A DNA stretch of 64,000 nucleotides, from the NCBI GenBank assembly GCA_001244265.2, contig CDLV01000004.1, positions 558,001-622,000 of the forward strand, in the 5' to 3' direction. A model generated the notes under the pieces. The model ran no database searches. It was not told the DNA's origin and saw only the letters and a list, made by a program, of their open reading frames with translations. Source of the stretch: Microbotryum violaceum (lineage: Eukaryota). Within the stretch, counting starts at the first letter, position 1, and the number at the start of each line of letters is the position of its first letter. Below, in pieces: positions 3,019-61,811 of this stretch. The translations under genes and the position numbers were made by a program.

Positions 3019-4225
3019 CTAAAGCTCAACAGACATCAATTTACCGTGAAAGACCCGTGCTACTATGTCGGGACGGTCGGATGCGGCTTGGCCAGGAAGC
3101 AAAGCGTTGACAATTTCCGACCAGGCAGGGTTGCATGTCATTGTGATGAATATGTCCGGAGCACCAAAAACACGAACGATGGCCATAGCATCTTGGTAAA
3201 GTTGGACCATTTGGCGTGGCGATCCGGTGTGTGACGACGGTAGGATGACTCTTTTGCCAATCTGCGCGGGAGCAAGTCCTTCAGCCAGGCTTGCTTGAAG
3301 GGACAAATACTCTTCGGCTCTGAGCTTTTTCTGATTTCTTCTCATCCAGTATAGCCGTTCTTGTTGAGTTACTGCCCAGGCGTCCGCGACAAATTTCTGG
3401 AACAAACGGCCCCCAAGGAACAACGTCGGGTAACTGATATTCGAAGGACAAATGTGGAAGTAGTACGCGTTGAATTGGCTCTGCGTCACACGTTTGGATC
3501 CGCCCTGTCCGGTTTGTGGGTTGGCGTTGGCGTTATCCGTTGTGCGTTGCAATACGCCGTTTTCGTCTCGCATGCGACGAACTGCCGCTGTTGCAATAGC
3601 GTTTTTGCTGAGGGGAATTCTGTTGTGGTACCAGTCTTTGCCATACGGTAACAATAGTGGGTATGTGAGTGCCATGAGTGCAGGGTGACCATCATGAATG
3701 AGCTGAATCCCGCTGCTGTCATTGTTTGGCGGGTGACGTAACCAAACGACGATCTCTCTTCTTGAAGATCGGTACTCGGTGTCGTCTCCGGGTAGTATGA
3801 CGGCCACCTCCTCTTGCGTCGGCAAGTTGTACGTTCTCGGGTCTCGATTGCGCGGGGCAAGTAAGCGCAGCTGGTACATGTGAGACGCTTCACTGTCCAT
3901 GAATTATTTTGCCGTTAGGAACAGTTTGACGCGCCTGTTGTGGAGTCGCAGCATGCCGTCGAATACAGGAACAATTTGCTGATACGCCGAGTCCAGACGT
4001 CGAACTTCTTCAGGCGGTCCGTTGAATCTATGTCGGGCTTCGATGCGTTCAGTCGGAGCCGCTGATGATGCCATGGCCCTTGCTCGTGCCGAATGATGCC
4101 ATAGCAAAGCTTTCGTTGAATGCAAGAATGCGGTCCCGAAAGATCTTCTCAACTGTTTCACAGATAATCAGCAAGGCCGTTAGTCCGCTGTACTCGTTCT
4201 AGCAAGTTGAACGAATCGACATGTA
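3019..4225 (-). mobile_element. Helitron Rep/helicase gene fragment (Helitron 1, 3' part, truncated)
   Basis: Motifs YNLPT.EEVAVI, YPLL.PYG, GGRLFQ.FVAD and ILPSSHTGSPRQMVQLYQDAMAIVRVFGAPDIFITMTCNPAW..I...DRPDIVARVF match the Helitron-like N-terminal Rep region. Confidence 0.9.
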
Positions 4226-4230
4226 CTAAC

Positions 4231-4575
4231 TATTGTCAAAATGTTCTCATGTGGTAACTGATGAAGACCACGACTCAGTCCAATGGAACGGGACGAGAAC
4301 AGAGTAAGTAGGATTCCAGAGAATGCATACCTGATGAAGACCACGACTCAGTCCAATGGAACGGGACGAGAACAGAGTGGCCAAAGGCTAAGGGACAAAC
4401 TCCAGAAGGACTAGGAAGGGATGATAAGCGGAGATAATAAAGAGCTAATAGTGACTAAAAAAGGGTAAGACAAATGAGGTGCTGAAGGGCTTCATGAAGT
4501 CGCTAGAGGCTCAAGATGAAGTACCATAACAGGTACTATACGTAGACTGAAGGACGATGCAACCATATAATGACA
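4231..4575 (-). repeat. 3' LTR of Copia A (5'-TGTCA...ACAATA-3')
   Basis: Identical by eye to 5972..6116 + 11087..11286. Contains a 48-bp internal direct repeat (4258-4305 / 4331-4378). Confidence 0.92.
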
Positions 4576-4854
4576 CTCCCCCGGTTGGAAGGTCCGAAGA
4601 TGGAGTAAACGGTACATGGTCGAAGACTTTTGACGAGATCGGGTAAAGCCGAAAGCGACGGGACTTGTTCGGGTAAAAGGGGCCGAAGACGGGTGGCGGT
4701 ATGACGGACAATGACGCCATAAAACGGGATGGAGAACTGATCTGAAAGGGACCAGTATAACCAAATGCGGGGACGGAAGCCAACAAACCAGAGTACGCTG
4801 GTGGACTAGTTGGCACTACTTGGACTTGGAGCGAAGGGCTGGTGTACGAAGCCA

Positions 4855-5967
4855 TCATGTTCGCAGACGGGGACGGTGATTGGCAAGAATACCAATACGA
4901 CTTGACGGTTGATCGGGCTGATGAAGAGACACCGATACGAAACTTGGATGGGTGATCGGCTTGAAGAAGACCGATACGACGAGGACTTGTGAGGATGAGG
5001 ACTTGTGACGATTAAAGCGAGTGACAGAAAGCGCTGTTAACAAACATAGCTTTGGCTGCTTCCTCCTTGACTGCTTGCGCTTTCTTGAGGGAAGGGCAAC
5101 CAGCCCACTTGGAACTATGCCCCATAACGTTGCAACTCTTGCAGTGAACCTTGGAGTGATCGTGACTTTGCGCGGACATAGCCAGCGCAGATTCAATCCC
5201 CCGTAAGCGTGGCGCTCGGCTCCATGAGTAGTAGAAGACGAGGCCATTTTGCGATCAACTTGAGCGTAGAGGACAGCAATGAACGAATCAATGTCTGTAG
5301 CGAGGGTGAGGTTGGTAGTAAGGCTACTTGCAATACTTTCCCATTCGGGCGGAAGCGAATGGACGAGTAGAGCGGCTTGCGCAAAACCAGGCAGTGGAAC
5401 ACCCATAGTGGAGATTTCCTCAACGGCGTTTAGGAAGTTGGAAACAAACGACTTGAAATTGGACGTGTTGGAACGCGTGAACGTGCTCCGGAAGATGACG
5501 GGGATGAGCTGGATGAAGCGAGCTTCAGCGCCTTTGGTGTGGTGAATCCGTAGGGCGGTCCACATCTCATGGGCTGAAACACAATTCTTGATAATCTTCA
5601 TTTGAGAACCGGTAATTGTGTTGTTGATCAACTCAGCAGCTTTGTCATCCTTGGCTTCAAGATCAAGGGTGTAGATGTCGACAAGTCCTTGCTGAGCAGA
5701 GGTGAGCGCGCGAGGCGCGGCGGGTGAAATCTTTGCGCCTGCGGAGGTTGCTTGCGAAGTGGACGGGGTGACAAGGGCGGCCTCATAGATCGCTAGCAGG
5801 GCAGGAATGCCCACAGTTGTGACATCCAAACATTTCTTGCGACGAAGATAGTTGCTGATCCAGACGGACCATTCTTCGTACGAGTTCGGATTGTCGCTAA
5901 GGTGGATCCTAGAGATGAGGGCGGAAGACGAAGGCTCGAGAGCAGCTTGGTAGCTCGTTGGGCTCAT
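4855..5967 (-). CDS. gag: Copia-type Gag of element A (frameshifted near the zinc knuckle)
   Basis: NSYEEWS..ISNYL, SAHEMW.AL..HH and LVHSLPPEWES motifs. A CKSCNVMGHSSKWAGC knuckle is present in an alternative frame near 5095-5145. No pol follows. Confidence 0.8.
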   Translation of the reverse strand: MSPTSYQAALEPSSSALISRIHLSDNPNSYEEWSVWISNYLRRKKCLDVTTVGIPALLAIYEAALVTPSTSQATSAGAKISPAAPRALTSAQQGLVDIYTLDLEAKDDKAAELINNTITGSQMKIIKNCVSAHEMWTALRIHHTKGAEARFIQLIPVIFRSTFTRSNTSNFKSFVSNFLNAVEEISTMGVPLPGFAQAALLVHSLPPEWESIASSLTTNLTLATDIDSFIAVLYAQVDRKMASSSTTHGAERHAYGGLNLRWLCPRKVTITPRFTARVATLWGIVPSGLVALPSRKRKQSRRKQPKLCLLTALSVTRFNRHKSSSSQVLVVSVFFKPITHPSFVSVSLHQPDQPSSRIGILANHRPRLRT

Positions 5968-6116
5968 AACCTATTGTCAAAATGTTCTCATGTGGTAACT
6001 GATGAAGACCACGACTCAGTCCAATGGAACGGGACGAGAACAGAGTAAGTAGGATTCCAGAGAATGCATACCTGATGAAGACCACGACTCAGTCCAATGG
6101 AACGGGACGAGAACAG

Positions 6117-9100
6117 AATAAAAGACTGACGAGCGTGTAATCCAACCCTCAGTTAATTGCATATGATAGTACCGTAGTGCTAGATGTACGTACCTGACGA
6201 GCGTGTAATCCAACCGTGGAGAGAAGACAACGGTTGGTGCGCATCGCCAGGCTTCACTAAACAAACGCGCGCTTCTAATCAAATAACCGAAAGCCGCCTT
6301 CCTGCTAATCCTCATTCACAACACGCCAACTCGCCCCTTCACGCGATGAATCTATAAGCCCCATCGCGTGTACAAACTGATAGTGCTTCTGTGTCCCGAG
6401 CCCCTTGGTGAGGACGTCCGCAGCCATGGTGCCCGTGGGCACCCAGACCATCTCGATCGTGCCTTCCGCGATGTGGTCCCGGATGAAGTGAAAGTGGATG
6501 CCAATATGTTTGGTACGAGCATGGAAAGCCGGGTGCTTGGCCAGAGTGATGGCGGACTGGTTGTCACCCCGCAAACGAGTCGGAGCGGTCTGCTCGAAGC
6601 CAAGATCCGCAAGCAAACGACGTAACCAAATCCCCTCGCGAGCGGCGTATGACATGGCCACATACTCGGCCTCGGTACTGGAGAGGGTGACGAGAGTCTG
6701 TCGCTTGGCGACCCAAGAGATAGCCCCACCAGCGCACATGAACACGTAGCCCGAGACGCTCCGGCGAGTGACCGGGTCGGCGCCATGATCAGCATCGACG
6801 AATCCCTCCAAGATTGCCGACATAGGCTGGAAGGACTTCTGATAGCGGATGCCAAAATTGCGGGTACCGACAAGGTAGCGCAGGATGTGTTTGAGCGCCT
6901 CCAATGCTCCGCCGTGAAGTCGTTGCAGAAACGAGCAGCCTTTGAAACGGCGAACGCGATGTCGGGTCGGGTGGTGCCAGAGAGGTATAAGAGCTTGCCT
7001 ACAATGGCGCGATAGGGGATCGAGGCAGGATCAAAACCGGAGTCAGCGCGATTCCTCAGAGTCGACGGAGCCGCGAGAGGCGTGGGGCGGGGGAGGCATT
7101 GGCCATGTGGTGTTCCTCGAGGATGGCATCGACGAAATGGCCCTGGTTGACAATCGCAGCACCCGTCTTGCCCTCACGACGGATGCTCTGGCCGAGGAAG
7201 AAGGAAGCCTCGTCGGTGCTGCGAGCTTCGAACCGAGCCTTGAGCTGACAGAGCACGCCGTCGAGATCCCCGTCACCCGTGAGCAGACCGTCGTCGACAT
7301 GAATGGAGAGGAAAGACCGTCGATCCCCCTCTTTGCGAACGAAAACGGCATGGTCACTGTCGGTGCGGGTGAAGCCAATGGACAGGATCCATTCAGTGAA
7401 GACCTTGTACCACTCGCGGCCCGCCTGAACGAGGCCGTAGAGAGCGCGCTGCAAGCGCACGATATCGCCTCCGGGTAGTCGCATGTAGATCTCGGTCCCG
7501 CCGAGGTTACCGTTGAGGTACGCAGACGAGACGTCGAACTGGCGGGTCTCCCACTCGTTCTCGACGGCGAGGGCGAGTAACAGTCGATGAGAGGCGGCTC
7601 GACCTGTGGGCGAGAACGAATTGATGTGCACCCCCCGACGTCTTTGCATGTCCCGCGCGCAACAAGTCGAGCTTTGTACTTGACAATTTGACCCTCCGCA
7701 TTGCGCTTGACGAGGAGCACCCACATGCTCCCGATGACAATGGCCCCGGCGGGGGTCGAACCGGCTTGGAGAACGCGTTCTTAGCGGCGAGAGCTCCCTC
7801 CTCCACCGACATGGCGGCCAGCCAGTAATCACGAAAGGGGCCAGCGAGGGCGGCCTGGACCGAAGGAGTGTCATCGCTGTCGATCTTGGCGAGGAGCGCA
7901 GAGACTTCCTCAAACGAGTACATCTGCGTGTCAGGGTCACCTTCGTCGAAGTCATCGAACTGGATGGCTGCGTGGTCGACAAACTCCCAATGCTGTGCCG
8001 CGTGAGCAAATCCGAGGTAGTCAGGCGGACGGCGGGTCCGGGTGGAGCGATCACCATCGGGCGGTGCGTTTGCCGGGCCAGGGTTCGAAAATGCGAGGGC
8101 GGGCGGAACGGGTGGCGGAGCGGCGGCAGCGGGAGCCACGGCCGGCGCTTCGGCGACAGGGGCGCAGCGGCGGAACCGATGCCGAGCGGCGCGGGCGGGT
8201 AAGACAAACCGACCGCAACAGGGATGGCAGGCATGGCAGGGCTCACCGCAGGGGGAAGAAACGGTCCTCAAAGAACCTGGCCTGAGACGACTCAAAGACC
8301 TTGTTGCGAACCGGATCGAAGAAGCGCCAGGCCTTGGATCGCGAGGAGTAGCCAACAAAGTAGCAGAGGCGGGATCGCGGGCCAGCTTGTTGGGACGTTG
8401 CTCGGGGCGAGCGGCACGTGAGCGGCACAGCCCCAGGTCTTGACACGGTCGAGGCGGGGGCGGCGGGTGTCCGTGACCGGGTCCGAGGGTTCGTGCAGCA
8501 CAGAGTCTGGGGTGCGCTGCTGGAGCGGCGACGAGGGGAGCAGATTTATGACGTAGATTGCGGCGTGCGCCGCTTCATCCCAAAGTGCGGGAGGCAGTCC
8601 CGAGCGATGGAGCCAGGCGCGAACGGAGTTGAAGATCGTTCGCCAGCTGCGTTCCTGAACGCCCATCTGGCCGTGCTCGTACGCTGTGGAGAGCTCGTGG
8701 AAAATGCCCCGCGCGGCGAGCCAATCCCGGAGCCTGTGGTTCACAAACTCGCCCCCTCTGTCCGTGCGCAGCGTCGTGACGCCCTGGCCCCCATACTGGG
8801 TCTTCGACATCGCAACAAAATCCTGAAGGACGGCTGACGAGTCACTCTTGAGCCGGATGCTGCTAGCCCAGCGGAAGCGCGAAAACTCGTCCGTGATGCC
8901 GCAGAGGTAACGAGCACCCGAAAGTGCGGGCACAGGGGAAGGACCCCACACGTCGGCAAAGACACGGGAGAAAGGTGCGTCCGCGGGGTGGCTCGCGGGT
9001 TCCCGGTTCGGGGAAGAGACGGTTTTGCCGGCGCAACAAGCATCGCACTGATCGAGGAGGCGAATCTGATCCGGAGTTACAGCTGCTACATCGAGTGGAA

Positions 9101-11081
9101 TTTGACCCGACCTAACAAGCTCTACCAAACGACCCCAAGAAGGATGACCCAAGCGCTGATGCCAAAGCACTACGTCTGTAGGCAAGGTGGTGGCAGTCAG
9201 CGCCAGGTGATCCGCCCGAGGAGGTGGGTGAGAACTTGCCTGAAGCACGTAGTGGTTGCGATCGAGGGCGAAGGAAAGGCGGGAGGTCGCGCTCGAGATC
9301 GCGATCCCGGTGTGTTTCCCAGCCGCGTCGCACTCGTTGGATAGCTCATACCCGTCCTTCATCAGGCCGGCGAGTGAGACGAGTTCAGCGGACAGACCGG
9401 GGACGAGGAGGACGTCATGGAGCTCGATGGACGCTTCGTCGACACCGAACCGGAGAGTGCCCGTACCGGTCGCCATGGCACTGGAGTTGAAGGCGCCGAC
9501 GACCCGGACGCGCTCCGTGGTGAAGGGCTTGAAGTCGATGAGGAGGTCCCGGCGAGTCGTCATGTGGCGGGTCGCACCCGAATCAAGCAAGTAGCGCGGG
9601 ATGTCGCTCAGGTACAGCGCCGTGTCGTCGTCACCAATGGGTACGCCGACGACCAAGTATCCCTCGTAGGCCTCGTCCTCGAGCTGAGCCTCGGGTGCAC
9701 GGTCGACGGCGACGAGCGCCATTACGTCGGCCGCGCCAATGGTGATGTTGTGCTTGGCGAGAACAGCGATGCGGCGGCGAGAGACCTCTGCCGACGGCAC
9801 CGTGCATTCGTCGCCAAGATGTCCCTGCTCGTAGCACCTTCTGCACTGCATCCGACCCAGTTTCAGGCGACCAGCGTGCGAGATCCCGTGAGGCCACCTC
9901 TCCTTGAGGCCGGGCACCCTCGAGGCCTGAAGGAAGGGGGCGCCGAGGGACCGGAAGGACGGCCCGAGGGTTTCGAGCGAGGACGACCCGAGGCTGGCTG
10001 ACTCCGAGACTGCACCCGTGCCGCTAATGCCTCCGCGATGGGCTCGATCTGCCGGCTCGAGGAAAGTGCGGCCCTACGTATCGCGCCCTCAACTTGCTCG
10101 AGCGATGGGAGCGTGCCGATGGAGTCGATGACCGTCACGAGGTTCCTCGGCATCCTAGCCTTCAAGAGGTCCATGCGAACGCCCTCGGACAGCGCTGGCG
10201 CTGGTACCCACTTGTCGAAATCGCTCTGGGTAAACGATGTGCCGTCGATCCTGGCGCGTTGATAGGCTTTGTCACGGGAGACGTGGGCGGCGACGAGGTC
10301 CTCAAACAACCGGTTGAAGTTCGCAAGCCATGGGTCTAGCGCTTCGCCGTCGACAAATGGCTCACACAAGAAGAGGGCGTCGAGCTTCGCTGAGCGCATG
10401 AAATCGTCCGAAGCGCGACCGAGATCCTTATCGAGCGCGGCCCACAAGTCGTGCGTGGCGTTGGCTTTGACGCGGGCGAAGGTGGACTCCCCCAAACATA
10501 CGATTAGCGTGTTGCGCGCCTGCGCAAGGGCCTGATCGAGAGCGTCGACATCCTGACGGTACAATCGAAGTTGGTTGCGATAGGTGGCCACATCGTCTAC
10601 CCGGTTGTCGCCCTCCAAGCGAGTGAACTCGGACTGCAAAGGCTCGGGGCCGACGTCTAGAACACCGGTGACGTGCTTGAGGCGGCCCTCGCCTTTCAGG
10701 ACGTTCTGAAGTCGCTCCCTGGCAACACCCCAGTTGGTGGCGTCGACTTTGTCGTATAGGTCGCCCATCAGACTGACGTGGTCAGCCGTGGGAGTCGCCA
10801 TCTTGGATATGCGCTGCGTCTTTTCTGCGTGCGGATCTGTGCCTTGCGGCAATACAGACGCTACCAAATAAAAGACTGACGAGCGTGTAATCCAACCCTC
10901 AGTTAATTGCATATGATAGTACCGTAGTGCTAGATGTACGTACCTGACGAGCGTGTAATCCAACCGTGGAGAGAAGACAACGGTTGGTGCGCATCGCCAG
11001 GCTTCACTAAACAAACGCGCGCTTCTAATCAAATAACCGAAAGCCGCCTTCCTGCTAATCCTCATTCACAACACGCCAACT
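6117..11081 (-). mobile_element. Full-length Ty1/Copia retrotransposon B nested in the 5' LTR of A
   Basis: 215-bp LTRs at 6117..6331 and 10867..11081, identical by eye. TSD AACAG at 6112-6116 and 11082-11086. PBS TGGTAGCGTC at 10857-10866 and PPT at 6332-6340. Domain order is gag-PR-IN-RT-RH. Confidence 0.95.
6305..10801 (-). CDS. Copia B gag-pol polyprotein, broken into several frames
   Basis: [14 protein letters not shown] knuckle; protease [20 protein letters not shown] integrase zinc finger; LRTDRGGEF integrase core; RT motifs [18 protein letters not shown] and IHVDD; RNase H motifs GFVDAD, SSTEAEY, DNQSA and ADVLTKGL. Likely start MATPTADH at 10801. Confidence 0.88.
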
Positions 11082-11291
11082 AACAGAGTGGCCAAAGGCT
11101 AAGGGACAAACTCCAGAAGGACTAGGAAGGGATGATAAGCGGAGATAATAAAGAGCTAATAGTGACTAAAAAAGGGTAAGACAAATGAGGTGCTGAAGGG
11201 CTTCATGAAGTCGCTAGAGGCTCAAGATGAAGTACCATAACAGGTACTATACGTAGACTGAAGGACGATGCAACCATATAATGACACTAAC

Positions 11292-11720
11292 CTGGGCCAT
11301 CGCCAGTCAGGAGCTCGAGCAGCTCGGGCGGGGCTTTTCGATCCCGGGCAATCGAACTTTGCCATCCGCGCAACAGATTTTGAACGGTGTGGCGCCGCCT
11401 GGGCCTGGGTCGGTAATTTTTTGAACTCCCAGTGTAGATGCGCCTCTGCTCTCAGTGAAGGTTGTCGTACAGGAGACGATGATGTCATTTCGGCAGTGGC
11501 AGGTGTTGTTGGCGACGGCGTCATTAAAGTGGGAGGGGTTGGGTGGAGGAGGACACAAGCAGCATCACTGGCGGCGCGTTCAGCCCTGCTCAGCCTCGCT
11601 GCGGCGCGCTCAGCTCGCTCACGTTGCCAACGCCTCTGGTAAAATCTTGCAGTTGACTTTTCGGCAGTGGCAGGAACTGGATGATTGAAGAAACTATATG
11701 CTACGATGTGGTAGAAATGC
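11292..11720 (-). mobile_element. Helitron 1, 5' part (continues 3019..4225 across the Copia A insertion)
   Basis: FKICCADGKVRLP motif (Helitron CCxxGKV.LP) lies immediately outside the CTAAC TSD. Confidence 0.75.
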
Positions 11721-12553
11721 AAAAACAGGTCATCTCAGTCTGCTTTGGGAAGCAGGGAGTCATGTACATGCGCCAGGCTGCTTTGATTGACAATGGAACC
11801 TCGGCGAATGTGGGCGAAACGGCCCGTGGCTGGGCGGACCCATTCTGAAACAGCGCTAGCTAATTGGGACGCAGTGGCCCAAGAGCCATTGCAGTCTACA
11901 TGTAATTTTTTATTTTTTTTTGTAGAACTTGTTCATCATATTGCCCCCAATTCCTGTTCCCCCTGATTGGCCTACGGAAAAACCAGATGGAAGTCGACGA
12001 TGATAACACAAACCGCCCGCAAGATGCGAGAAACGGGCCGGTGTTCACCAATCTGATACTTGGGATTCAAGTGCCCCAGCCAAGCGGTTGCTCCCTCCCA
12101 GGAGACGAATAAGAGAGAGAAAGAGAAAGGAGTAATAAAACAATTTACTAAGCGACAAGAGGCCCACCCCGCCGTCACTTCCCAACTTGTCAAGACAAAG
12201 ACAGGAGATCGACTGCGCAACTACCCTGACCTGCAAAGTCCTAAGTCTATGCTCGGTCACAACAAGATGCGGTGGAGGCCCCTCAAAACCTCCACCTCAG
12301 CAGTCCCTGGCCCTCAAAGCCGACTTTCTGCCTGTGTCCGCTGATCCCTCCCTTGACTCAGAACCCCGAAGCCAAAGAGCGCGAGTCACCGTCGAGTCAA
12401 TCTCAAATCGCGAGCCGGTCCATGAGCAACGAAGGCAGACCTGTAATAGATGAAAGATGAAAGCAAGATATTTAGTATACAGTGTTTTGTTGGAAGATGA
12501 AGCGTGATGGTGTGTGTGTGTGGGGTGTGGTGGGGGGAAATCGAACCCAGCCT

Positions 12554-15500
12554 CTACTGCCCTTGCCCGCCCCTTGCTCCTCCCGCCCTCAACTTCATCC
12601 TCTCCTCCAGTACCACCCTCCTCCTCTCCACGCTTTCCATCCTCGTCCCGTGCTTCTGCATCCTCCATCTCCCACTGCTGATCATCTCCAAAACCATCCC
12701 CGTGAAGATCTCGATCGTCCAGCCCACCCCTTCCTGTTTGCTGAGCTTGGCCTTGAGCTTGGGGAGGCCAAAGAGACGTTGCAGTGTCGTGTACTGGGCG
12801 TCCTCGATCGTGTCGCACCCGAGTGCGTCGCAGAGCACGCTCCTTGCTGCGATCCAGATGTTCCGCAAGTCAACGCAGCCAAAAAAGTAGCGGTCGGTGT
12901 TGTCCACCGGCGCTTCACAGACGAGGCACGCGGGAGAAGTGTCGTGCTTTTGTTGATGTTGCAGCTTGTGCATCGGGGTGAAGCGGAGAATCAGCTTGAA
13001 ACAAACTTCCCTCTCCCTCGCCGTCAGTGCCTTCGAGTTGACCGCCTTCCAAAAGCTCCTGAGGTCGTCCGGCTGCGGTGGTCCCTTGAGCCCGAGTGTG
13101 TTGGTAAAGGCCTTCGCGTGCAGGACCAGGCGCATGCGACGGATGGTGTACGGTCAAGCCATGTTCAGCAGCTTGTACTGGCTCGCCTGCTGTGGAAGCA
13201 CCGGGTCCGGAAGGCGCTGCTCCATTGCGAAGCGGGCCACGGGCTTGGGGAGAATTGCCTCGAGCGGTGCGCTGGTGCCGATCCGGGGGGCACGTTGAGC
13301 CGTCCCGCCGCCACCGCCACCGCCAAGGGCGTGTTCTTGTGTCGATCGACAGTGAACCGGTGCCAGGCCGCGATTGCCAGTCGATGCAGGAGCCCGCATC
13401 GATTGTACTCGCTGTTGTCGCCGAGCACATCCGCCGGCGGCGTCCAAAGGTGAAACCCCCACCCGCATACAACTTGCGCCGGTAGAGATCCGCCACCTTC
13501 GGGTAGCCTTGGAGACGAAGGTAGTCAAGTATATGAACCGCGTCGATGGTCTGTCTCCCTCTGATGGGGGTGTGGAGGCTGCCGAGCAAGGTGGGAAGCG
13601 CGAGCAGGTTCGCGGTGGTCAAGGTCCTCGGTTGACCTGCGCGTCTTGCTGTTTCGGAACCCCAATGCTGCTCGCCATCAGGGATGGAGGTCGCTGGGGA
13701 TGGGAGTGGATGGATGTGGCCAGAGATTGGTGGCCAGGTCAAGGTCCGACTGAGCTTGCTGGAGTGCCGCGCGCACAAGTCCTTGCCAGATCGCGCCCAA
13801 ACCGCCAAGAAGAACGTCCCAGATCCGTGCCGCAACCGCGTCCACAACGTCCTGCATCCTGATCACCCGAGTCCCCACTTGAGCTTGGCTGTGAACACGA
13901 TATCTCTGCCGTAGCTGGTCCTGCCCTTGCCCCACGGACGAAATCGACGAGCATGTCATCGAGCTTCTTGACGACTTTGGGCGGCGGGATGTTGGCTGCA
14001 AGGAAGTGCAGGATCTTGGGGATGGTGTACCAATTGACGTAAAAGGCACGGGTGTGGTGTGTGAGCCAGCGATGCTGAACCCCTTCCAGCGTCGCCTCGA
14101 GGCGTTCGATGAGATTTGCGTAGGCGAGTTTGGTGTTGCCGCTCGGGTCGAAGGGGAGGCCGATCCACTCGAGCAACTTGCCTGCGGCCTTGACGACGAG
14201 CGGGCATTGCCCCGGGTCCCAGCGGCATCCGATCGGTAGGACAACTGTCTTGTCCGTGTTGAGCTGGCCATTCGTTGCATGCCTCCAGTCGAGCGCCAGG
14301 TCATTGAGCAAGTTGAGTGACTCCAAGCCCGCGACGGCGACGACAACGTCATTGGCAAAAGCAAGTGATGTAATGGTGCGGCTCTGTGGGTACGGATGAA
14401 GTGCAGGTATGGACAGATTCAGCGCGATGTTTCGACAGTGTAGAGCATCCAGAAACGGCTGAAACATGATGTCCCAGACCGACGACGACGCCGGGTCCCC
14501 TTGGCCAAGCCCACACGTCAGTTGCACCGGCGCCGTTAGGAACCCATTGATGATGTAGCGGGCCAAGGTTGAGTCACCCGAGTAGAGCATCCTCAGCACG
14601 CGAAAAAAGGTGGCAGGAGCGCCCAGAGCGTCGAAGATGGCAAAGATCCAGTCATGCTCAACGAGGTCGTAGGCAGATGATTGGTCAAGAGACAAGAGCA
14701 CGGCCGCAGGGAACTCGATCCTGCGCGCGCCAACTTCCTCGATCAGGAGACAAAGGTGTAGTGCAGCGTCAGCCAATCGGCGGTCCTTGATGAATCCGTG
14801 CTGCTGCGGCCGGAGGAGATCGGGTAGAATTTGGTTCAAACGGGCGACATAGACCTTGGTAAAGCTCTTGTAATCGCACTCGCGCAGGGTGATTGGCCGG
14901 TACGACGAAAGTTCGGCGCAATCGGCATTCTTCTTGTGTCGCTTGAAGATGAGGCGCACGAGTTCTTGGCCCTGCTTGGGAGAGAGTGAGCCTCGCTCTA
15001 TCATCGCGTCGTAGGCCTTGGTCAGCACCTTGGCCCACGCCTTGGGTGCGGTCTGGTAGAGTTCGTAGGGCACGCCCGATGGTCCCGGCGATCGCCCCGG
15101 GTGTGTCGTCCCGATCGCGGCCACGACCTCGTCCTCGGTGATTGGTTGCTGGAGTAAGTCGATCTGCAATTCCGAGAGTCGGCGCAGAAAGAGAGGATCC
15201 GAGCGCGGGTTGTCGCAAGTCCGCGCCGCCCTGATCGGCGCGAGGAATTCGTCCCGAAGTCGGTCGACGCGGTCCGGGTCACGAGGCTTGATGTGGTAGA
15301 GGCGCTGGAAATGCGCCTGCGTGTGGTCAAGAGCGACATCAATGTCATGCTTTAGCTCTCTGTTGCTCAAGCGCAGTGCTGTGATCTTGGAGTCCGAGTT
15401 CCGCGCCGCAAGCTTGGCGTGGACCGGCCGCGACAGTCGTTCCTCGGAGGCGATCTCGGGGACGTGGGCTCGGATCCGGAGTAGGCGCGCGCGCTCCTCG

Positions 15501-16565
15501 ACCGCCCGCTTGAGTTCTTCGGATGTCCTTGTCCATTCTGCCGTTTCTGCCTCCCCCCATTCCGGTATCGCCTCCAGATCCTGCACCCTCCCACCAAATA
15601 CTCCATCCGTTCCGTCCGCTCCCAATGCAACCTCCTCGCCATCTCCCCACCCCTATCCCTGCACGCCTTCAGAATGACCTCGAGCTCCCCCACCGGTTCC
15701 TCCCGCTTGCCCCTTCCAGCCATCCTTCCATCATCCGCTGGAATTCCACCGTCTTAAAGGTTGTGGTGTTGATTCAATGTAGTTGGTTTGATGTGGTAGG
15801 TAGGCTGAGCTGTGGGAGGGTCGCATCAGGATCATCTGAAAGAGCCAGCACAATCAAGACCGGTCGGTGATTGGAAAGCTCCTTGGGATAGTCGTAGATC
15901 GTCGAGGCCTGGTCGAGTCTTTTTTGGTGTGTCCGTTGCAGGAGAAAGTAGTCAAGCCGGGAGAAGGAGTTGGTTCGCTTGCGATTGGGATTAGGTCGAG
16001 TGAAGGATGGGGTGATGGGGTGTTTGTAGCGGATGCAGTCCGTGTAGGCCGAGTCGAGCTTGCCGATCAGGATTGGCCAGTGGTGGCCGCGCCGACTTTG
16101 GTTCCGCCGATCGACTTCTGGGAGCGGGCAGTCATTGAGATCACCGCCAAGGAGTCGGAGGTGGGATTTCTGTGTTTTGTGAAATAAGAGTTTGTCAAAG
16201 AATTTCGCTCGTTGCTTTGGGTCAACGGGCGCATAAATGTTGTTGATTTCTAGAATTTTGATGTTGCCCCGCAGACGAAAGGATGTGACGAGGAGCCGGC
16301 CGTCGAGTGCCGAGTGGATGTGCAAGAGCTTGGCGTCGATCAGGGGGGAGTCAGCCGGAATTAGAGTCAGACAATGTTGGTTGATGAAGAACTTGCCCTT
16401 GTACTTGTCCTTGATGAGTTGCCAGAGGTGCGGTCTGATGATGTGCTCTTGTATGAGAATGGCTGATGCTTTGAAAAGGGATAGGTAGTTGTAAATGTCA
16501 TGTCGTTTCTCCGGGACCTCCATGCCCCTCCTCACGTTCCAGGTGATGATGGTGTACTTAATCAT
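12554..16565 (-). pseudogene. LINE-1 ORF2: AP endonuclease + reverse transcriptase + C-terminal zf-RVT-like region
   Basis: [47 protein letters not shown]; catalytic AFADD mutated to AFAND; C-terminal CLVC...YFF.C. Contains stops and frameshifts. Confidence 0.9.
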
Positions 16566-18828
16566 TAATGGGTAGTTGAGGTCGAAGCGCTCTTGGCGGT
16601 GGTGACGTCCTCAAAGAGGGGAGGGCGGGCAGGACATCGTCCTCGGGCTCGTGGTCGGACCATCTTTTCTCCTTGGCTACCCCTTTGCTTTCCCTCGGTC
16701 CACTTTCGTCACGCCAACCGGCATTGCCGCCGCCGCTGACATCGACCTCGTCACCCTCCGCCCCTCTGTTCCATCCTTGACAACAACGCGGCTCTTCCCT
16801 TTGATGATCACTCGCTTGGCGTCGGTTGGTTTCACTGAGGTCCGCCGCAGTCTGCGACCTCTTCATTACCGGCTTTTTGAACTTTGCAGCGGTCCCCCTG
16901 ATATTGATGGAACGTATCTCACCGTCCTCATCCCACGTGGAAAAGTTGTGACGCACCAAAGGGGGATTCAGCGTCGAGCCTCCTCTCGATGCTTTGGTCC
17001 CGCTCGAGTCGTGCCTGCTCAACCCAGTTAGCTCTGATCCTGTCCCACTCCTCCCCCTCGCGAAGCGACTTGGCAAGAGTTTAGGGTGACAAAGGTGGGG
17101 TTGGTTCGTGGGGTGTCGATTTGCGGGAAGCGGTGGCGGCAGTTGCTGTTGCGTCGCTGTCGTTGTCATGGTCCAGCCTGTTCGTCTCCCCTAAGTCCGT
17201 CGCTTCCGCGTTCTCCGCTTTCGTCGCTCCCCCTGCCTCGTCCACATTGTCCACCTCCGTCGCCGCCTCCTCTTCCTCCATCTCCGTCGCCACCTCCCTT
17301 TCCTCCATCTCCGTCGCCACCTTGCCTTCTGTTTCGCCCCTTCCATCCGCCATCACCTCATCCTCATCAATAACCTCTCCATCGGATCCTCCGCAGTCCT
17401 CTAAAACCAACTCGTCCTCGCTCTCAAGTTTGATGACCTCCGTTTTTGCGGTCGCCTCTGATTCCATCTCCGAGTCCTCCGAGTCCTCGTCATCCGCCTT
17501 ATCACCAGCGTCCTCCTCCCCCGATTCCTCTGGCCCCTGTCCGCTCTGGCCAGTTACCGCTTCCTCCTGTCCCTCCTCAACCTCGAGCCCGGCGAAGCGA
17601 TTCTATGATGCAATCCTGTTAACAACCGGCACAGGAATGGGGGCCTTGGCCTCCACGATGTTGGTGTCATTGGTGATGGTGTTCTTGTTGGCGTTGGTGT
17701 TGCCGTTGCCGTTGCCATTGTGAGCCTCCTTTCGCTTGCTCTCCTGATCCAGTCCGCAGTTCCCACGTGACCAACGAAGTGGCACCTACCGCAAGCCGCC
17801 TCCTTCTCATAGTCATAGCGAAGGGCGGTGACCGGGATGCCTCGAGTGGGAAGGCCGATTCTCGAAGGTAGGATCTCTTTCAAGGTCGTGTTAGGGCATT
17901 TGAACAGGGAGTCGTCATCAAAGTGTAGGAAAGCTGAGTAGTCTCCGGCAACGTGGGCAAAGGCCGAGGCGTTGTCCACGCTGATAATGCGCAGAACCTG
18001 CACAAGTTGGCACGAATGTCCCTTGCCTGACAAGTCCTGCACTAGTAATTGGAACGATTTGATGATGGCGTCCATGGAAGGCACTCCTTGAACACCGATG
18101 TTGATTCGAAGCTCGACCATGTTATGGTGGAACCTGTGAGATTTCGCGAAGCGGGCCTTCGCCGATCGCCAAGTGAGAGCAGGGGGCGTCGTAAGCGCAG
18201 CGTCACGTGCCTCGCCGGTGACGAACCCAACCGTAACGCGATGGTGAGCCGCCCCATTACGCAGGATTGATGAATGTTGTACGCCTAGGATCTGTGGTCG
18301 ATAGGCTGCAAGGTGGTCCAGCAGAGGAACTCCAGGCTCAAAGCAGATAGGAGAGATCGGCGATAACAGCCTCGTGACGCAGGCCACGAGATCGGTCTTG
18401 CCGGCATGAGACGCTCGCGAGGCGCTCTGGTGAGACAGAGTCACTTCAAGGGCGTAATCAAAGATGTTTTCGACAGACCGGTTCGCGTTTAAGGCCGAGA
18501 ATTTCAGCGATGTGGCGGTGGCGACGGGGTAGAGTTCGGCGAAGTAGATGGCCTGGACCCAACGATCCATGCGGTTTCCGGGTACAGCACCCATGGCTTG
18601 TAGGAGGCTGCCCAGAGGCTTGGCACGCTGTTGTTGTTGTTGCTGTTGTTCAGGTGACTGAGTCGCCTGACTCGCAGCGGCGGCATAGTTGGGTGCGGCG
18701 GTGGCGGGGCCCGTGACTTGCGTCTTCTTCGAGCTTATTGGGATCTGGTCGCGGGGTGGCTGGACGCTGGTGGCGGACACCGGTGGTGGCGGTGCCGGCG
18801 GTGGGGACCCAGGGTCTCCTGTAGACAT
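16558..18828 (-). pseudogene. LINE-1 ORF1 (gag-like, zinc knuckle, acidic C-terminal half), frameshifted
   Basis: Starts MSTGDPG; CGRCHFVGH knuckle; E/D-rich tract; homologous to ORF1 of LINE-3. Confidence 0.8.
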
Positions 18829-18937
18829 CTTGTCGGTGTATCACTTGTTAACTCGAGTACCGAAGACTGCGGTAGGGCGATTTCGAAGTGAAGTGAAGTG
18901 AAGTGAGGTGAGGTGAGGTGAAGTGAAGTAGAAGTGA

Positions 18938-21607
18938 TTTTTTTTATTTATTTTTTTTGACTGGGGCTCATAAATTGAAATCCTTCGGGTTGGCTGGGAC
19001 CGCTACAAAAAGAGCTAAAGGAGGTTATAAAGCAACGACGGCAAGCAGTTGGGTGAAAGTCAAACCCCTGCGCGCAAAGAGCGCTGCGCAGATCAAAACC
19101 CGCCGAGCACCTAACGCGGACTCCAACGGGCGGTGAGTACTGCTGCCGCTTCACGTCCCAAGAGCGGGAGCAAAGATACTCGAAAACCAGGCAAGAGCGC
19201 CTAGAGAAAGAAGGGGGAGAGTATACAGAAAGTCACGACTGGGGATACGGAGAACCAGGAATACTAAGACAGAGAGGAGGGGAACACCGAGGGGCCAAGG
19301 GAGGGGTCGAAGCCGGAGGTAGAGGTCCCCAGGGACTAACAGGCCGCAGCCAAGCCCCAGCTACTCGTCACCCCGACAGCGCCTGATGTCCTCCCTTGGC
19401 TGAATCTCGAGTGCTGGCTGTTGAGCCGTCGGGGCCGAGAGAAAAGCGATCCAGTACAACGAAACGAGCCTCGCCTTGACGCGAGGATATTGACCAGAAA
19501 CGAGCGACCTTCCTTCCCGAGCCATGCCGTAGATCTTGACCAACGCGAACGAACGAACCATTCAACGGAATCCAACACACGGCTTAGGAGTAAAAGGAGA
19601 AGTGACTGAAGCGTAGTCAACAACCGAGCAACAGGAACGAGAAGAGGAAGGGAAGGGAAAAAAGGGGGAAAGGAGAGGGAAAAACTTCACAAAGCCTCCA
19701 ACGCAAAGACAATCGACCTGGCTTGCCGATCCATCCAAGAACAAAAAAACCGCTACTGCGCAAAGTAGAGAGAGAGAGGGAGAGGTGCGCAGCCTTCCAC
19801 TGCGCAACAATTTCCAAGACAGTCAGCTTCTAAAAGAGGAGTCGACCTCCGAAAAAGAAGGGAGGAAAGGAGGGGAGGAAAATGGGAAGGAAGGACTTAA
19901 CTCGGTCATCACACCTCCCAATCTCGAGCCCCAGGCACAAAACCCGCTCGAGAGAGAAAATCTCGCTCGAACGCTCTGAGTGCACTGGGGAGCGAGGGAG
20001 GGGCCACGACCTTGTCCAGCTCGAACCGCTGATGAACGCGCCAGCGGAGCAGGTGCAGCCGCTGGAAGCCGATCGCGCAGGCCAGCCGAACCCACATCCA
20101 TCTCGAGGTCGTTCTCCCACGACCCCGCAAAAGGGGAGCCCCATAGTCAGCTGCTCCGGAGTGAACGTCGACGGATCGACGTCGGTATCCTCGATGCCCA
20201 GCTTGTCGAACAGAATGCGAAGCACCCCACCCCAGAAGCTGGTCGAGTACGCGCACTCGAAGAAGTAGTGCGACACCGTCTCGATGACCGCTGCATCGTT
20301 GCCGCAGAACAGACACGTCGGCGAAGAGGCATGACCCTGAGTATGCTGCCTCTTGCGCGTCGGCGTCACGTCGTACATGAGCCGCCAGTGGGTGTCCTGC
20401 TCCACAGCAGACGCAAATCGGTCATGAAGCCATCTCCAGAAGCGCTTCCTATCGCTCTGAGAAGTCCCATCACGGAAACGCTTGACACGATCCTCCCTCC
20501 CTGGGAACCGAACCACTTTCACAAGCCGACGAAGCTTGCGAATCGTGAACGGTCGAGTGAGCCCAAAGAAGTTGAAGCACCGAGGACGGGGAGCCTCCTT
20601 GAGAGGTATCCTAGCGGGTCGCAACGCGGTCTTGGGCAGCAAGGCTTTCGCCTTGAGCAACTGACCCACGCGCGACCACACGTGCTCGTGCTGTAGGGCG
20701 GGTTCCTTAGAGTGCTGCCAGAACCCGCGTCGATGACCAACCAGAGCCCAGCCCTTCCCTTCGTCCCTCCAGTACAGGTCCGCGATCTGCGCAAACTTCG
20801 CCACTGCGTCCGCATCGTCATATGCGTGCTTGGCACCTTCAGCATAGAGTGAAGGGAGGCGAGGCGGAAGCGAGAGCAATTCGGGAGCGTAAGGAGTTCG
20901 GACTTGATGGTTGGAACTGTGACCCTGGCAGCTGCAACGACTGCCCCCAGCGCGTCGAGTCGCGATACAGCTTCTCGACCCGAGCCGTGCTGCTGAAGAA
21001 CCCCCACGGACTGAAATCGCGGGTCGCAGCGACGAGGGACCTCCAGCTCTCGCGAGCTAGGGGCGCCCAGATCGCCTCGTTCGAGCCCGCCACAGCATCC
21101 CAAAATCGAAGCGCCACCGAATGAACGATGTCGCCGATTGAAATCAAGCCCAAGCCACCGTCCTCCCGAGCCTGGAACACGAAATCGCGAGCGACGGTAT
21201 TTCGCCCTGCTCCTCCCCAAACAAAATCCGTAAGTGCTGTCTCCGCCGCCTTAATGAACCATTGAGGCGGTATGTCGAAGGACAGCACGTGGAGGACCCT
21301 CGAGATGATGTGAGCGTTGGCATAGAAGACCTTCCCACTCGGCGAAAGTGTCCGGTCTCCAGCGGCGCGGGTCTTGGCCTTGATCCTGTCAAGAACATGG
21401 GTCCAAAACAGTTTCGAGTCACCGTGGCGAAAGAAGGCATAGCCGCACCACTTGAAGCTCTCCCCCTCCTGCACCGTTGGCAACGCCTGCGCAGTCTCGT
21501 CCCGAAGCCAGTTCGGTCCGAGTGGTAGCACCAGCGTCTTGTCCGTGTTGGTCTTCCCGTTGGTTGCCTCGTACCACGTCTGCGACAGCGTTTCCAGCTT
21601 CGACAAT
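18938..21607 (-). mobile_element. 5'-truncated L1-clade LINE of a different family (LINE-2)
   Basis: A-tail at 18938-18958. Post-RT motifs NGKTNTDKT and GGLGL; zinc finger CLFC..ETVSHYFFEC. About 0.9 kb of 3' UTR. Confidence 0.85.
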
Positions 21608-21895
21608 GCCGCCGGTGAGTGAAGGGCATGCCTTACAGAACAGCCCTATAAGTAGCCTCTGAGTAGCTAGAACTGCCGAGTTCTAATTACGACTAGTCTA
21701 GTGGTCAAGAACGACATATTGTATTTTATGCACGTCAGAGGCGCATACCTTACACTACCGAAACCGTTATGACGTCACGCCACATGGTTCCCGTTCTTTG
21801 ACGTTCTTTGTCTCCCGTTTTCTGACGTTCTTTGAAGTTCTTTAGCCACACAGTTCTTTTTAGTAGTTTAGTAGATTAGTAGATATTTTAAGGGA

Positions 21896-24040
21896 CCAGT
21901 GGGAACCCATTAAATTAACGGGAGGATGAAATTCAAAAAATAGCAGAATAATCGAACAATCTACATGATATCAGCGCAGAGGTTAAGAAAACACGAAATA
22001 CAGCAAAGAAACAAAATACATTCATCTTACATTCATCGCCGAAACAGCCTGCATGTCGCTTGTTGCCGGACTTGGCTTCAAACACTCGTGCAATGAGATC
22101 CGGACGGTTGCATGCTTTATCGGCCCCAGTGCAGCCTTGATTTCCGGTGAGTCGGGGTCGTACGTCATCGTGATGAGCAGCGGAGGCTTTCCATGTTTGA
22201 TAACGCACGCCATCGCATCCTGATATCGCTACGTGATGTCGCAATTTGGTTCGGGGTCAAGCCTGAGTCAGTCGGTCTTGACTTGGGAGTACATCCGTAA
22301 ATCACAAAGTCCAGGAAGGGACGTTGGTTGCAATGCGGGATTGAGAAGTACTCGTCGCGTTTGGCAAGTAGTGTGAAAGAATTGTGAACGCGAGACTCAC
22401 CACCTCGACCCCTTTACTTGAGCTTCGTCCTAGGTGTTCAAAAGTTCAATGTCAGTCTGTGCTTGCGCCTTAGACAGAATGGAACCTCAGAGAAAGAGCC
22501 GACGACGCGTACGTTCGCCATCACCATCCTCTTTGTCCCCTTCCTCGCCGTCTTCATCCTCATTGTCGCGGTCTTCGTCCTCCTGTTCGTCTTCGTCATC
22601 CAGACCAAGACCGGCAACTACCTCGCGCAATTGGACACCATTGTCGATCTGCTCTCGGTTTCTGGCGACTGGCGGCCCGGCTTGGTGGAACCGCAAAGAG
22701 GAATGTTGGGGTGGAAGCCATCTTCCCCGCGGGGAAGAGTAGTGGGTACCGGAGAGGCATCGCAGACGGATGGAGCGAGCTAACGGTTTGGTACTTGGGC
22801 CGACCATCGGACATCGATCACCGTGCACCTGGAGAATAAGGTCTTGCGGTCCACGATCTCCGGTGTTGGTGTCGGAATCGCAGATAAGCATCGTCATTTC
22901 CGTGCTTGACGTAGGAAGGTTGTGGGTGCGTCGGTTTCGGCCTGGTGGTAGGCAGAGGCGCAAGACCCACTCTTTGGCCGTATCCCAACCCGCACGGCCT
23001 TTGGCCGAAGCGAACTCCCTCACAAAACAATTGCCGGTGCGCAACATGGACTCGAGCTTGGTCAGCGTTGATCTTTGTATGCGAGTCTCTGCGCTGTCGG
23101 GTCCTTGAAGTCGTGTGTCGGTGGCCTCGGCCGGGTCGATCAGCCATGTCTGGGCAAAGGCTGGGCGTTGATTCACGGCAGGGATCAGGGCACCGAGTCA
23201 ATGATAGAGGCGGCCGAACACGCGAAACACGGGAGGTCCTAGAGTGCACACTTGGGTTTAGTCCCAGTGGGCAGCGAGCGAAGTAAAGGATAGTGCGTTA
23301 TTGTAAGACCGGGCATTCTCGCGAAATGCTTTAGCGTCTGTGTAGGTGCATCGCACAGTTCAGCATGTGGGCCATACTGCAGAGAGATGTTGTTGGACGG
23401 AGCAACTGACCGCTATCCGAGCCTTGAAGAAGCTGCCGATACTCGAGATTGGGCTGGGGAGGGGGAGGTAGCCGCACCTTGCCCTGCGAGCAGCACGCGC
23501 TGAAGTGTCTGGTCGACTTGGACCTTTCGCACTCCCAGTGCCGAGCCTTGCAGTGGGTGCACACGGCCGTCTGCGGGCCGAGGTCGTCGCGGATCGAAAC
23601 GTGGGCTTGAGGGGTTTGAGCGCGATATGAGCCCGGCGCACCCGCCTTTGCGGAGGAGGTGGTGGTGGGCGAGCCCAGCGTCGAGTTGGCCATCGCGCTG
23701 ACCACGCTGTCCGTTCTGCACAGCTGCACGGCGGGCTCGTATACGTGTCGCAATGCCAAGATCGGTTGAATTGTTGTCATGACGCGCCGGGGGCTGATTC
23801 TGTTGATCGGAGCGGGACGAAGAGGAGGGTCGAGCCGCGGGCGCCCAGCAGCGGGCGCTCGAGCAGGCCCATGGTACGGCGCTACCCTCGCGCCCAAGTC
23901 TTGGGCGAGGTTGCGATGGCCCTCCCTGGCGACCTTGGGACCGGGGCATTACACAGTAGCGAAGGTTTGTTCTTGAATGAGTGTCACTAAAATTGGATGA
24001 GAGTGGGAGGGAGAAAGGAAAGGTTCGAGGGAGTGGCACA
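21896..24040 (-). mobile_element. Non-autonomous Helitron 2 (internally deleted; 5' boundary uncertain)
   Basis: CTHCKARHW..FSACCSQGKVRLP, THNLPT, LRYPLLFP and YQDAMA..GKP.L.ITMT..NRPDLIARVFEAK motifs. 3' hairpin at 21906-21922 followed by CTGG|T on the minus strand. Confidence 0.85.
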
Positions 24041-37943: not shown

Positions 37944-38210
37944 TTAGTCGGGCGCGAGTCGAGGTAGTCGGGCGCGAGTCGGGTGCGAGTCGGCGCTTAG
38001 TCGAGCGCGAGTCGGTGCTTAGTCGGGCGCGAGTCGAAAATGTTTGAAAGTCCGACTTGCGAGTCGGAAGGGAGTCGGGGACGAGTCGACCCCAGTCGAC
38101 CGCGAGTCGTGCCCGAGTCTGTTCAACTGGGTGACGGCGAGTCGGATTCGAGTCGACAGAGTCGGACGCAAGTCGGATGCAAGTCAGCTGCGAGTCGAGG
38201 CAGTCGTGTT
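37944..38210 (+). repeat. Array of about 20 AGTCG motifs, mostly about 10-11 bp apart
   Basis: Reads agtcgggcgcg-agtcgaggt-agtcgggcgcg-agtcgggtgcg-agtcg... directly. Confidence 0.85.
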
Positions 38211-38305: not shown

Positions 38306-38949
38306 GGTTAATGGCCCTGGTCCGCCCCCTTCCTTGGCGTTGGGCTTGGACCAGGCTTCCCTTCCACAGCGGCTTGTATACATGTAAGGATATATCCTTA
38401 CACATGAGTTAAGGTCAATACACAACCAAATCTGTTCATCTTGATATTGTAACATCAACATATAACTATTTCTGAATGGTGTCTGCAAGGACTACATGAA
38501 AGCATGTTTATTGCAAGACTTGTAGTGATTCAAAATTCCTGTGTCCTTACCGCACCTCCCGTATCCTTACCGCACCCTCGTATCCTTACATGTGTCGACA
38601 TGTGTAAGGATACGCCCGCGCGCGCACGTGACATGCGTAAGGATACGCTCGCGCGCAAAGAGCACTGGCTGCTGCTGGTGAATAATTGACTCTTTCCGCA
38701 CACCAGTGGTTGTCAAAGTATCGCCATGCCCATTTTTGCACTAAGTTTAGTTATACATACTATTGCTGACCCCTATCATAGCCCCTACTGTACACTACAT
38801 TAGTGATTGACAAGGCCAAAACTTCACTGGACCACTGGGGCACAACTTTGTGAGTCAAACTTGCCATCAACATGAATGTTCCTCACTGTGATTTCCTCCA
38901 GGAGCACTGCACCGCTGGAAAACATTGTAAGAGGAGAGCATCGTCAGCT

Positions 38950-42423: not shown

Positions 42424-47089
<4,666 letters not shown>

Positions 47090-47094
47090 CATTG

Positions 47095-47912: not shown

Positions 47913-48989
47913 CGTTGTCCTTTCTTCACTATATGTTGGTAAATTCGCATGATCTTCACTGTTGACGAGCTTGTCATCCGTTGAATATGGTTCGGTGTTC
48001 GGACGTAGATTGCCGGAGATCCTGTCGGTAAGGATACGGGAGGTGCGGTAAGGACACAGAAATTTTGAATCACTACAAGTCTTGCAATACGCATGCTATC
48101 ATGTAGTCCTTGCAGACACCATTCAGAAATAGTTATATGTTGATGTTACAATATCAAGATAAACAGATTTGGTTGTGTATTGACCTTAACTCATGTGTAA
48201 GGATATATCCTTACATGTGTCGTGGCCGAAAATGCACAGGGGGCGAACCGCTTGGGAGAACCTTCTTGACCTGCCCGATTACAGTCGATTTTATGCGGAT
48301 GTCCGAGAGGGGCTTTTTACCGGTCGCAAGTGCGCCTCAGGATCTCCGACGCCACTCCCCGTGACTGTCCATGGGCACCCCGGGCGATTTGCACACACCA
48401 TCCTCCGTGAAGGTGATCTGTGTGCGCTTGTCTGCACCGTCGAGGCTCGCGCTTGGAGGGACAGGTCCTCCGGCAAATGCAGTGGCACGGGCGCCTAAAC
48501 TTCGTGCCCCTCAGGATTCGCGTGCACCGCCAGAACGACGTGAGTACTTCTTGAATACATATTTTGTGCATATTGCATGTGCCTGATGTGCGGCAGATGA
48601 CATGCCAAACCACGCCCCCGCCGACCGTCCAACTCAGTCCAAGCGGTTCATCGCCTCCCCTGTCAAGCGCTCGGCAATGGACGCCGAGCTGAATATTGAA
48701 TTATCGAGCACCGAAGGTCATGGTAGTGAGTTCAAGCCCGCAAATCGCAACACCTTTTGTACCGACTCACTACTGCCGGTTTCGGTTTCTTGCGCTTTAC
48801 AGTCACTGACAACTATCGCAGAAAACATGCGAGCGCGGAAGATAGACTTCTGATAAAAGAGAGGCAGCGACGCCGAGAAGTCAGGACCAGTCCACGAGCG
48901 GCACAAAGGCGGACGACGAACAAGATCGTCGTGATCGACGAGACAAGAGCAAGCGTCTTGTTGTAGTCGATCCCCAGTCGTGGAGCAAA

Positions 48990-55387: not shown

Positions 55388-61654
<6,267 letters not shown>

Positions 61655-61811
61655 GCTAATGTAGGCTGATGTATCACTTGTAGCTTTAAAGGTGGCGGGT
61701 GGCGCGATATCGAAAGTGAAAGTGAAAGTGAAAGTGAAAGTGGATTTTTCTACAGCGACCTGTGGCCAGGACCCTGTTGAAGGTGTTAGTAGACCTTGCA
61801 CTGATATCAGG

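Follow-up and report, generated by a model that had tools for sequence, protein, structure and literature searches.

Two copia-type LTR retrotransposons, one nested within the other, carry the same module in their LTRs just before the primer-binding site (PBS): an exact repeat (E and its second copy, E') encloses a unique spacer (I) and is followed by an LTR tail (T), and a GT..AG unit of exactly one repeat period runs from the 3' boundary of E to the 3' boundary of E'. The anatomy of the module, its position, its recurrence in two unrelated families and the match of its repeat boundaries to splice motifs were read directly from the window, by which we mean the whole 64-kb stretch of DNA that was analysed. 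The module is probably a real leader intron. For the whole reading, in which a short spliceosomal intron lies in the R-U5 leader, E' comes from a template switch and rebuilding of the intron is possible, we judge the sequence evidence to be evenly poised; that the intron would in fact be rebuilt by strand transfer is a tentative proposal, and one that we think is on balance unlikely to hold.

The module was originally noticed in a minus-strand element (here element 1), a copia-type, gag-only derivative with an internal region of 1,395 bp, in which PF14223 is the sole domain (E 6.3e-16) and pol is missing; judged by its sequence, element 1 is a non-autonomous copia derivative. Its 3' LTR (4231..4575, minus strand; 345 bp, TGTCA...GACAATA) is identical to the 5' LTR at 345/345 positions. 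The 5' LTR is split by the second retrotransposon (element 2), inserted 8 nt into the upstream copy of E, so that its distal part (LTR positions 201-345) is found at 6116-5972 and its proximal part (LTR positions 1-205, that is, U3 and the first 8 nt of E) at 11286-11082, both on the minus strand. The target-site duplication GTTAG (4226..4230 and 11287-11291, minus strand) flanks the whole, and an empty-site contig from another sequencing run (X1 record 1), which stops at 4230 and resumes beyond 11291, confirms the ends of the element. The LTR ends of elements 1 and 2, as fixed by the target-site duplications and the empty-site contig, are non-canonical, being TG...TA in element 1 (TGTCA...GACAATA) and AG...TT in element 2 (AGTTGG...TTTTATT). 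Element 1 itself sits within a Helitron-like gene (3019-3903 and 11307-11734, with PF14214 on the low side), of which run X1 holds an uninterrupted paralogous copy, about 94% identical.

Element 1 has both a tRNA-Met-complementary PBS beside its 5' LTR and a polypurine tract before its 3' LTR. The PBS, GGTTATGAGCCC (5960..5971, minus strand), follows the 5' LTR directly; the polypurine tract GGGGGAG (4576..4582, minus strand), read from the sequence, is just upstream of the 3' LTR. The PBS is complementary to the anticodon arm of a tRNA with the anticodon CAT, and contigs matching 5948-5971 continue into tRNA T-arm-like sequence (with a loose end at 5972 in run X2), which indicates that the PBS of element 1 pairs with the anticodon arm of this CAT-anticodon tRNA; we take this mode of priming to resemble that of Ty5 and copia. 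The copia-type gag (5012..5967, minus strand; PF14223) has its ATG inside the PBS. Because gag thus starts right after the LTR, the entire 5' UTR of element 1 is LTR sequence, and the putative intron occupies the leader position that the original prediction had assigned to it. In element 1 (5965-5971) and in a third copia of the window, element 3 (46805-46811), both on the minus strand, the gag start codon falls within the PBS (GGTT ATG AG[C/T] CCA ACG AGC TAC), so that the gag ATG is the complement of the CAT anticodon of the primer tRNA, with complementarity to the tRNA extending over the first gag codons. P0001, a gag annotated in Microbotryum silenes-dioicae, is a protein of 318 aa with a zinc knuckle and is 98% identical. 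Compared with P0001 and other copies, element 1 has lost 1 nt near 5197, which disrupts its gag frame, and contigs of runs X2 and X12 have an extra C behind 5197. A frameshifted gag between identical LTRs may mean that a defective copy was moved in trans, or it may be an indel error of the assembly. Gag-only, non-autonomous LTR retrotransposons are known from the plant literature as TR-GAG elements; element 1 shares with them its LTRs, PBS, polypurine tract, zinc-knuckle gag and lack of pol, and differs from them in being fungal, of copia type and equipped with a PBS that matches a tRNA anticodon arm.

Read along the minus strand, the 3' LTR of element 1 presents E (4378-4331; 48 nt, ACTCTG...TTCATCAG), the putative end of exon 1, which closes with CAG; then I (4330-4306; 25 nt, GTATGC...CTACTT), which opens with the potential donor GTATGC and contains ATGCAT; then E' (4305-4258), identical to E at 48/48 positions and likewise ending in CAG; and finally T (4257-4231; 27 nt, TTACC...GACAATA), which would be the start of exon 2 and the end of U5 and which reaches the LTR end, with the PBS next. 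The sequence thus agrees with the order originally described, in which E, a GTATGC spacer and an identical E' precede TTACC on this strand. The putative intron (4330-4258, minus strand; 73 nt, GT..AG) consists of I and E' and would read CAG/GTATGC...CAG/ (a slash marks the junction); its excision would take out exactly one 73-nt repeat period, as had been claimed. A second copy is also where it was predicted to be, at 6071-5999 (minus strand) in the 5' LTR, in a module that is the same as in the 3' LTR.

Element 2 (6117-11081, minus strand; 4,965 bp, target duplication CTGTT) is the nested copia, with LTRs of 215 bp that are 100% identical and with gag, protease-like, integrase and RT domains that show frame breaks. 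Its domains follow the copia order on the minus strand, with rve PF00665 (8292-10073) upstream of RVT_2 PF07727 (7056-8267); the pol region (6305-10073) runs through at least three frames, with a shift near 8400-8450 in the integrase for example, despite the complete identity of the LTRs. The module is found on the minus strand at 6126..6215 in the 3' LTR (E2 at 6215-6194, putative intron at 6193-6126, tail at 6125-6117) and at 10876..10965 in the 5' LTR (E2 at 10965-10944, putative intron at 10943-10876, tail at 10875-10867). E2 is GGTTGGATTACACGCTCGTCAG, 22 nt long and ending in CAG; I2, of 46 nt, starts with the potential donor GTACGT and contains both ATGCAA and CTGAG; and E2' is identical to E2 at 22/22 positions. 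Together I2 and E2' make up a putative GT..AG intron of 68 nt, again one repeat period, with the splice-site reading CAG/GTACGT...CAG/. The 9-nt tail leads into the PBS, TGGTAGCGTCTG (10866-10855, minus strand), and we take TGGTAGCG in element 2 to resemble the 3' end of initiator tRNA-Met.

The two families are, on sequence comparison, unrelated. Matches between the two LTRs in blastn all had E > 1; the best local alignment of the LTRs is the junction itself (TCATCAGGTA versus TCGTCAGGTA), and its score does not differ from the shuffle mean; a comparison of the gag proteins gives E = 0.069; and the PBS types differ, pairing with the anticodon arm in element 1 and with the 3' end of the tRNA in element 2. 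Common descent of the two LTRs was considered as a source of the shared module and was rejected on the LTR and gag comparisons.

A scan of the 64-kb window for exact repeats of at least 15 nt with a period of 35-200 returned 8 rows per strand, which represent 5 distinct loci. On the minus strand, GT..AG falls exactly at the 3' boundary of the repeat in 4/8 rows, namely both copies in each LTR family, and in 0/4 of the remaining rows; on the plus strand a GT..AG offset was found in 1/8 rows (at 11488), inside the repeat. Among the 5 distinct E-I-E loci, a GT..AG at the boundary is therefore confined to elements 1 and 2, on their sense strand. The motif AG/GTNNGY, built on a GTNNGY donor consensus that we assume to apply and for which a literature search gave no confirmation in print, occurs exactly once in the LTR of each of these elements, at the junction of E and I; the window as a whole holds 43 such sites among 128,000 strand positions (3.4e-4 per position), and at one fixed junction it would be expected with a probability of about 4.7e-4, given the composition of the window. 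A 48-nt exact repeat cannot be due to chance, and chance is an unlikely source of the same-site motif in two unrelated LTRs; it is the occurrence of the module at the same structural place in both that argues against it.

Neither is the module a simple tandem duplication. I has no other match of at least 11 nt in the window, by which a copy from elsewhere in the window was also discarded as its source; and neither T (TTACC... in element 1, TCTTTTATT in element 2) nor the sequence before E resembles I. With I unique and T unlike I, the layout is E-I-E-T, without the two full copies of the unit (E-I-E-I), and on these grounds tandem duplication was ruled out.

Several features of the module resemble those of short fungal introns. 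In Cryptococcus, 5' UTR introns have a median length of 65 nt, according to the available part of the source (PMC3990503), and by analogy the 68 and 73 nt seen here fit the lengths of basidiomycete 5' UTR introns. The CTGAG that the original prediction had pointed out within the 48-nt repeat is present, its A being 18 nt before the acceptor; in element 2 the corresponding A is at -24. A strict CTRAY branch motif was sought 10-40 nt before the acceptor and is found in neither LTR of elements 1 and 2. The hexamer ATGHAH occurs exactly once in each of the two LTRs, within I. ATGHAH marks poly(A) sites in Cryptococcus, as the accessible text reports (PMC7049704); this is a distant basidiomycete, and as a candidate poly(A) signal in the present fungus the motif is only a lead. 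Each I also holds one ATG, which in element 2 is in frame with gag and in element 1 opens an upstream ORF of 17 codons. In element 1, an initiator-like CCACTCT (YYANWYY-like) is found where E begins.

Other copies were read from the contigs of 4 runs (X1, X2, X4 and X12) among the 16 listed. In 3/4 runs there are contigs that cover I and reach into both E and E' (X1 record 5, X4 record 26 and X12 record 13). A diverged copy in a 77-nt contig (X4 record 24) reads ATCAG/GTCAGC..., with GT, +5G and +6C kept, so that in this single copy the donor is conserved in a diverged member of the family, as the original prediction would have it. The spacer of this copy is about 73% identical to I and lacks ATGHAH; its E' is about 92% identical, with 4 differences in 51 nt. 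The identity of E and E' (48/48 positions in element 1, 22/22 in element 2) in the face of this spacer divergence hints, if the duplication predates the split and as far as one 77-nt contig can indicate, at repeated re-copying of E; against this, both elements are very young (100% identical LTRs), and E = E' could simply reflect recent duplications. Two joints were listed, neither of which skips 73 nt: a 164-nt skip at 5783-5948 (X2) and a passage from the internal region into the 5' LTR (X12), which is expected. X4 record 27 and the X12 loose end at 5948 join a PBS-like tRNA segment (plus strand) to spacer and E' of the opposite strand, a join that appears to be a chimeric locus elsewhere in those genomes. 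Searches of metagenome contigs gave 100 pattern matches and 0 relatives for the gag of element 1 and 0 matches for a 29-nt stretch of E; in viral contigs there were 0 pattern matches to the element 3 polyprotein, and 3 pattern matches with 0 relatives to the integrase ORF of element 2. An atlas search with a neighbouring ORF pointed weakly to Basidiomycota.

Three LTR elements were found in the window in all. The third (42424-47090) is a copia that looks intact: it has an ORF of 1,389 aa, LTRs of about 280 bp and a PBS of the same anticodon-arm type as that of element 1. Its LTR contains no E-I-E layout, no AG/GTNNGY and no ATGHAH, from which it follows that copia elements of this genome can do without the module. 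In the same LTR, ACAATAGGTCAT, possibly an old duplicate of the LTR end and PBS, stands about 45 nt before the true end, ACAATAACA/GGTTAT. About 9.5 kb including element 3 are bracketed by a 193-nt inverted repeat pair (38380-38572 and 48026-48218, 97% complementary), and a GAGTCG-rich short-repeat array (37944-38200) adjoins this pair. Elsewhere in the window there are two copies (12060-22230 and 54877-63728), 73-97% identical and 42.8 kb apart, of a LINE-like region that is about 10 kb long and carries RVT_1 and zf-RVT ORFs.

The module could have arisen with no splicing at all, as a duplication of R/U5 sequence through slippage of the reverse transcriptase or an aberrant strong-stop transfer, which would have been kept as neutral or as an aid to strand transfer; the splice-like motifs would then be a coincidence, or would act only as a U1-binding site that modulates a nearby poly(A) signal. 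Template switching by reverse transcriptase commonly yields direct repeats in LTRs, both elements are young, the CTRAY branch motif is missing from both LTRs, and no spliced form is seen among the contigs, which cannot separate a one-repeat from a two-repeat form, the 48-nt repeat leaving the joined form without a unique 31-letter word. What such an origin does not readily account for is the boundary match to AG/GTNNGY in two unrelated LTRs, for which the probability by chance is about 2e-7 at fixed junctions and on the order of 1e-4 even with any offset inside the repeats allowed; further points against it are that the motifs read in the sense direction, that the units have intron-like lengths and that the diverged copy has retained the donor. 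We regard a module without splicing as unlikely, if worth keeping in view. The resemblance of the start of I to a PBS suggested another origin, in which the junction of E and I would be an old U5/PBS junction and the LTR would have grown when priming moved downstream: (G)GTATG may be compared with GGTTATG in element 1, and (G)GTACGT with GGTAGCGT in element 2. This likeness extends over 6-8 nt that overlap the donor consensus, and a shift of the PBS yields no exact copy of E after I; the idea was dropped because of the shortness of the resemblance, and we find it very hard to credit.

The intron could also be real and the repeat without any role in replication, if only unspliced RNA were packaged and copied and E' served as the region of branch point and acceptor, or were a historical footprint. 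Retroelements such as retroviruses keep their splice sites in this standard way, by packaging and copying unspliced RNA, and an R region composed of E-I-E' would work normally with no special step. This account leaves unexplained why an exact copy of the exon end should reach up to the junction in two unrelated families, and also why E should equal E' where I diverges (as seen in a single contig); we give it a rather low probability.

The reading that we prefer is that of a spliced leader intron with an E' obtained by template switching. Splicing, the transcript ends, the origin of E' and the rebuilding of the intron are here what we infer from the anatomy of the LTRs. Splicing at the junctions of E with I and of E' with T would produce a leader that is colinear with E'-T, and would remove the ATG in I (the only upstream ATG there) together with ATGHAH. 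On such a spliced leader, the reverse transcriptase may have copied T and part of E and then switched into an unspliced intron after I, which would have placed a copy of the exon end (CAG) before T, where it could then act as acceptor. Since E' would in this way be derived from spliced RNA, the match between repeat boundaries and splice motifs would be best explained.

Once in place, the repeat may also serve to restore the intron. Nascent minus-strand DNA made on spliced RNA could land on E' of the 3' LTR and recopy I and E, and both kinds of RNA, spliced and unspliced, could then transmit the intron. In the full form of this scheme, mRNA would be spliced at the 5' LTR, with removal of the intronic poly(A) signal and the upstream AUG; transcripts would be polyadenylated in the 3' LTR inside or just after the intron; strong-stop DNA would land on E' and the intron would be re-synthesised; and E would overwrite E' in each cycle. 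That all of these parts hold together is, on the sequence evidence, a doubtful conjunction. For full-length strong-stop DNA made on spliced RNA, the upstream E would be the best annealing partner, and the intron would then be lost; to escape this loss, transcription would have to begin exactly with the first base of E, or the jump would have to be premature. Given this preference for the upstream E, rebuilding could at most be partial, and the intron would also be handed on by unspliced RNA alone, which needs no special step.

Retroelements copy themselves from processed RNA and are expected to lose introns, and in intron-rich fungi expression often depends on introns. If the proposed scheme is true, a repeat layout that keeps a 5' UTR intron, met twice independently in one 7-kb stretch, would be a new answer to this conflict between intron loss and expression, and strand transfer would have a new role. 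The layout would also provide a simple signature that can be searched for in other genomes: E-I-E-T, with CAG/GT at the repeat boundary, just before a PBS.

The enzymology that rebuilding needs is familiar, as retroviral reverse transcriptases carry out deletion between direct repeats, homology-driven template switching and premature strong-stop transfer; these processes are known in connection with deletions and recombination, and not with the keeping of introns. In the model attributed to Rogers, introns are reportedly created by tandem duplication of a segment containing AGGT, which predicts E-I-E-I. As in that model, splicing here would remove exactly one repeat period and restore the sequence that preceded the duplication; the difference is the layout E-I-E-T, in which T and the sequence before E are unlike I.

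In the literature, of which supplementary files may hold more, we found no account of a natural intron in an LTR that carries a repeat of the exon end. Even without rebuilding, as far as the search and the available texts go, the only precedents for a functional intron that lies entirely within the LTR of a compact fungal element are a maize preprint and the Penelope-like elements. In maize, spliced transcripts within LTRs are reported in a 2026 preprint (PMC13192763), whose authors claim the first evidence of LTR introns. These introns differ from the present ones in being long (mean 1,303 bp) and in belonging to LTR-contained non-coding RNAs, and the available text of the preprint mentions neither a repeat layout nor any connection with reverse transcription. 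Penelope-like elements have a 75-bp intron in the 5' UTR, inside a pseudo-LTR (Arkhipova, 2003; Schostak, 2008; both via the accessible part of PMC8557442). As would hold for the elements described here, their terminal repeat, according to that text, houses both the start of transcription and a short 5' UTR intron able to persist through retrotransposition. Penelope-like elements, in contrast, are not LTR retrotransposons: they rely on a GIY-YIG endonuclease and on target-primed copying, and the persistence of their intron is attributed to partial-tandem insertion, with no copy of the exon end in the intron described in that part of the source. In split-intron retroviral vectors (Ismail et al., 2000, via the accessible part of PMC3182074), the copying of LTRs assembles an intron in the provirus. 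These vectors, as described there, share with the scheme proposed here that an intron is built by the LTR-copying steps of reverse transcription and that the transcripts are spliced and better expressed. They differ in being engineered. Their donor, which copying carries over from the 3' LTR into the 5' LTR, works with an acceptor in the internal region, so that the intron takes out the packaging signal, and no repeat serves to restore this intron from spliced RNA. If the scheme is true, the module described here would be a natural, convergently evolved counterpart of these engineered vectors.
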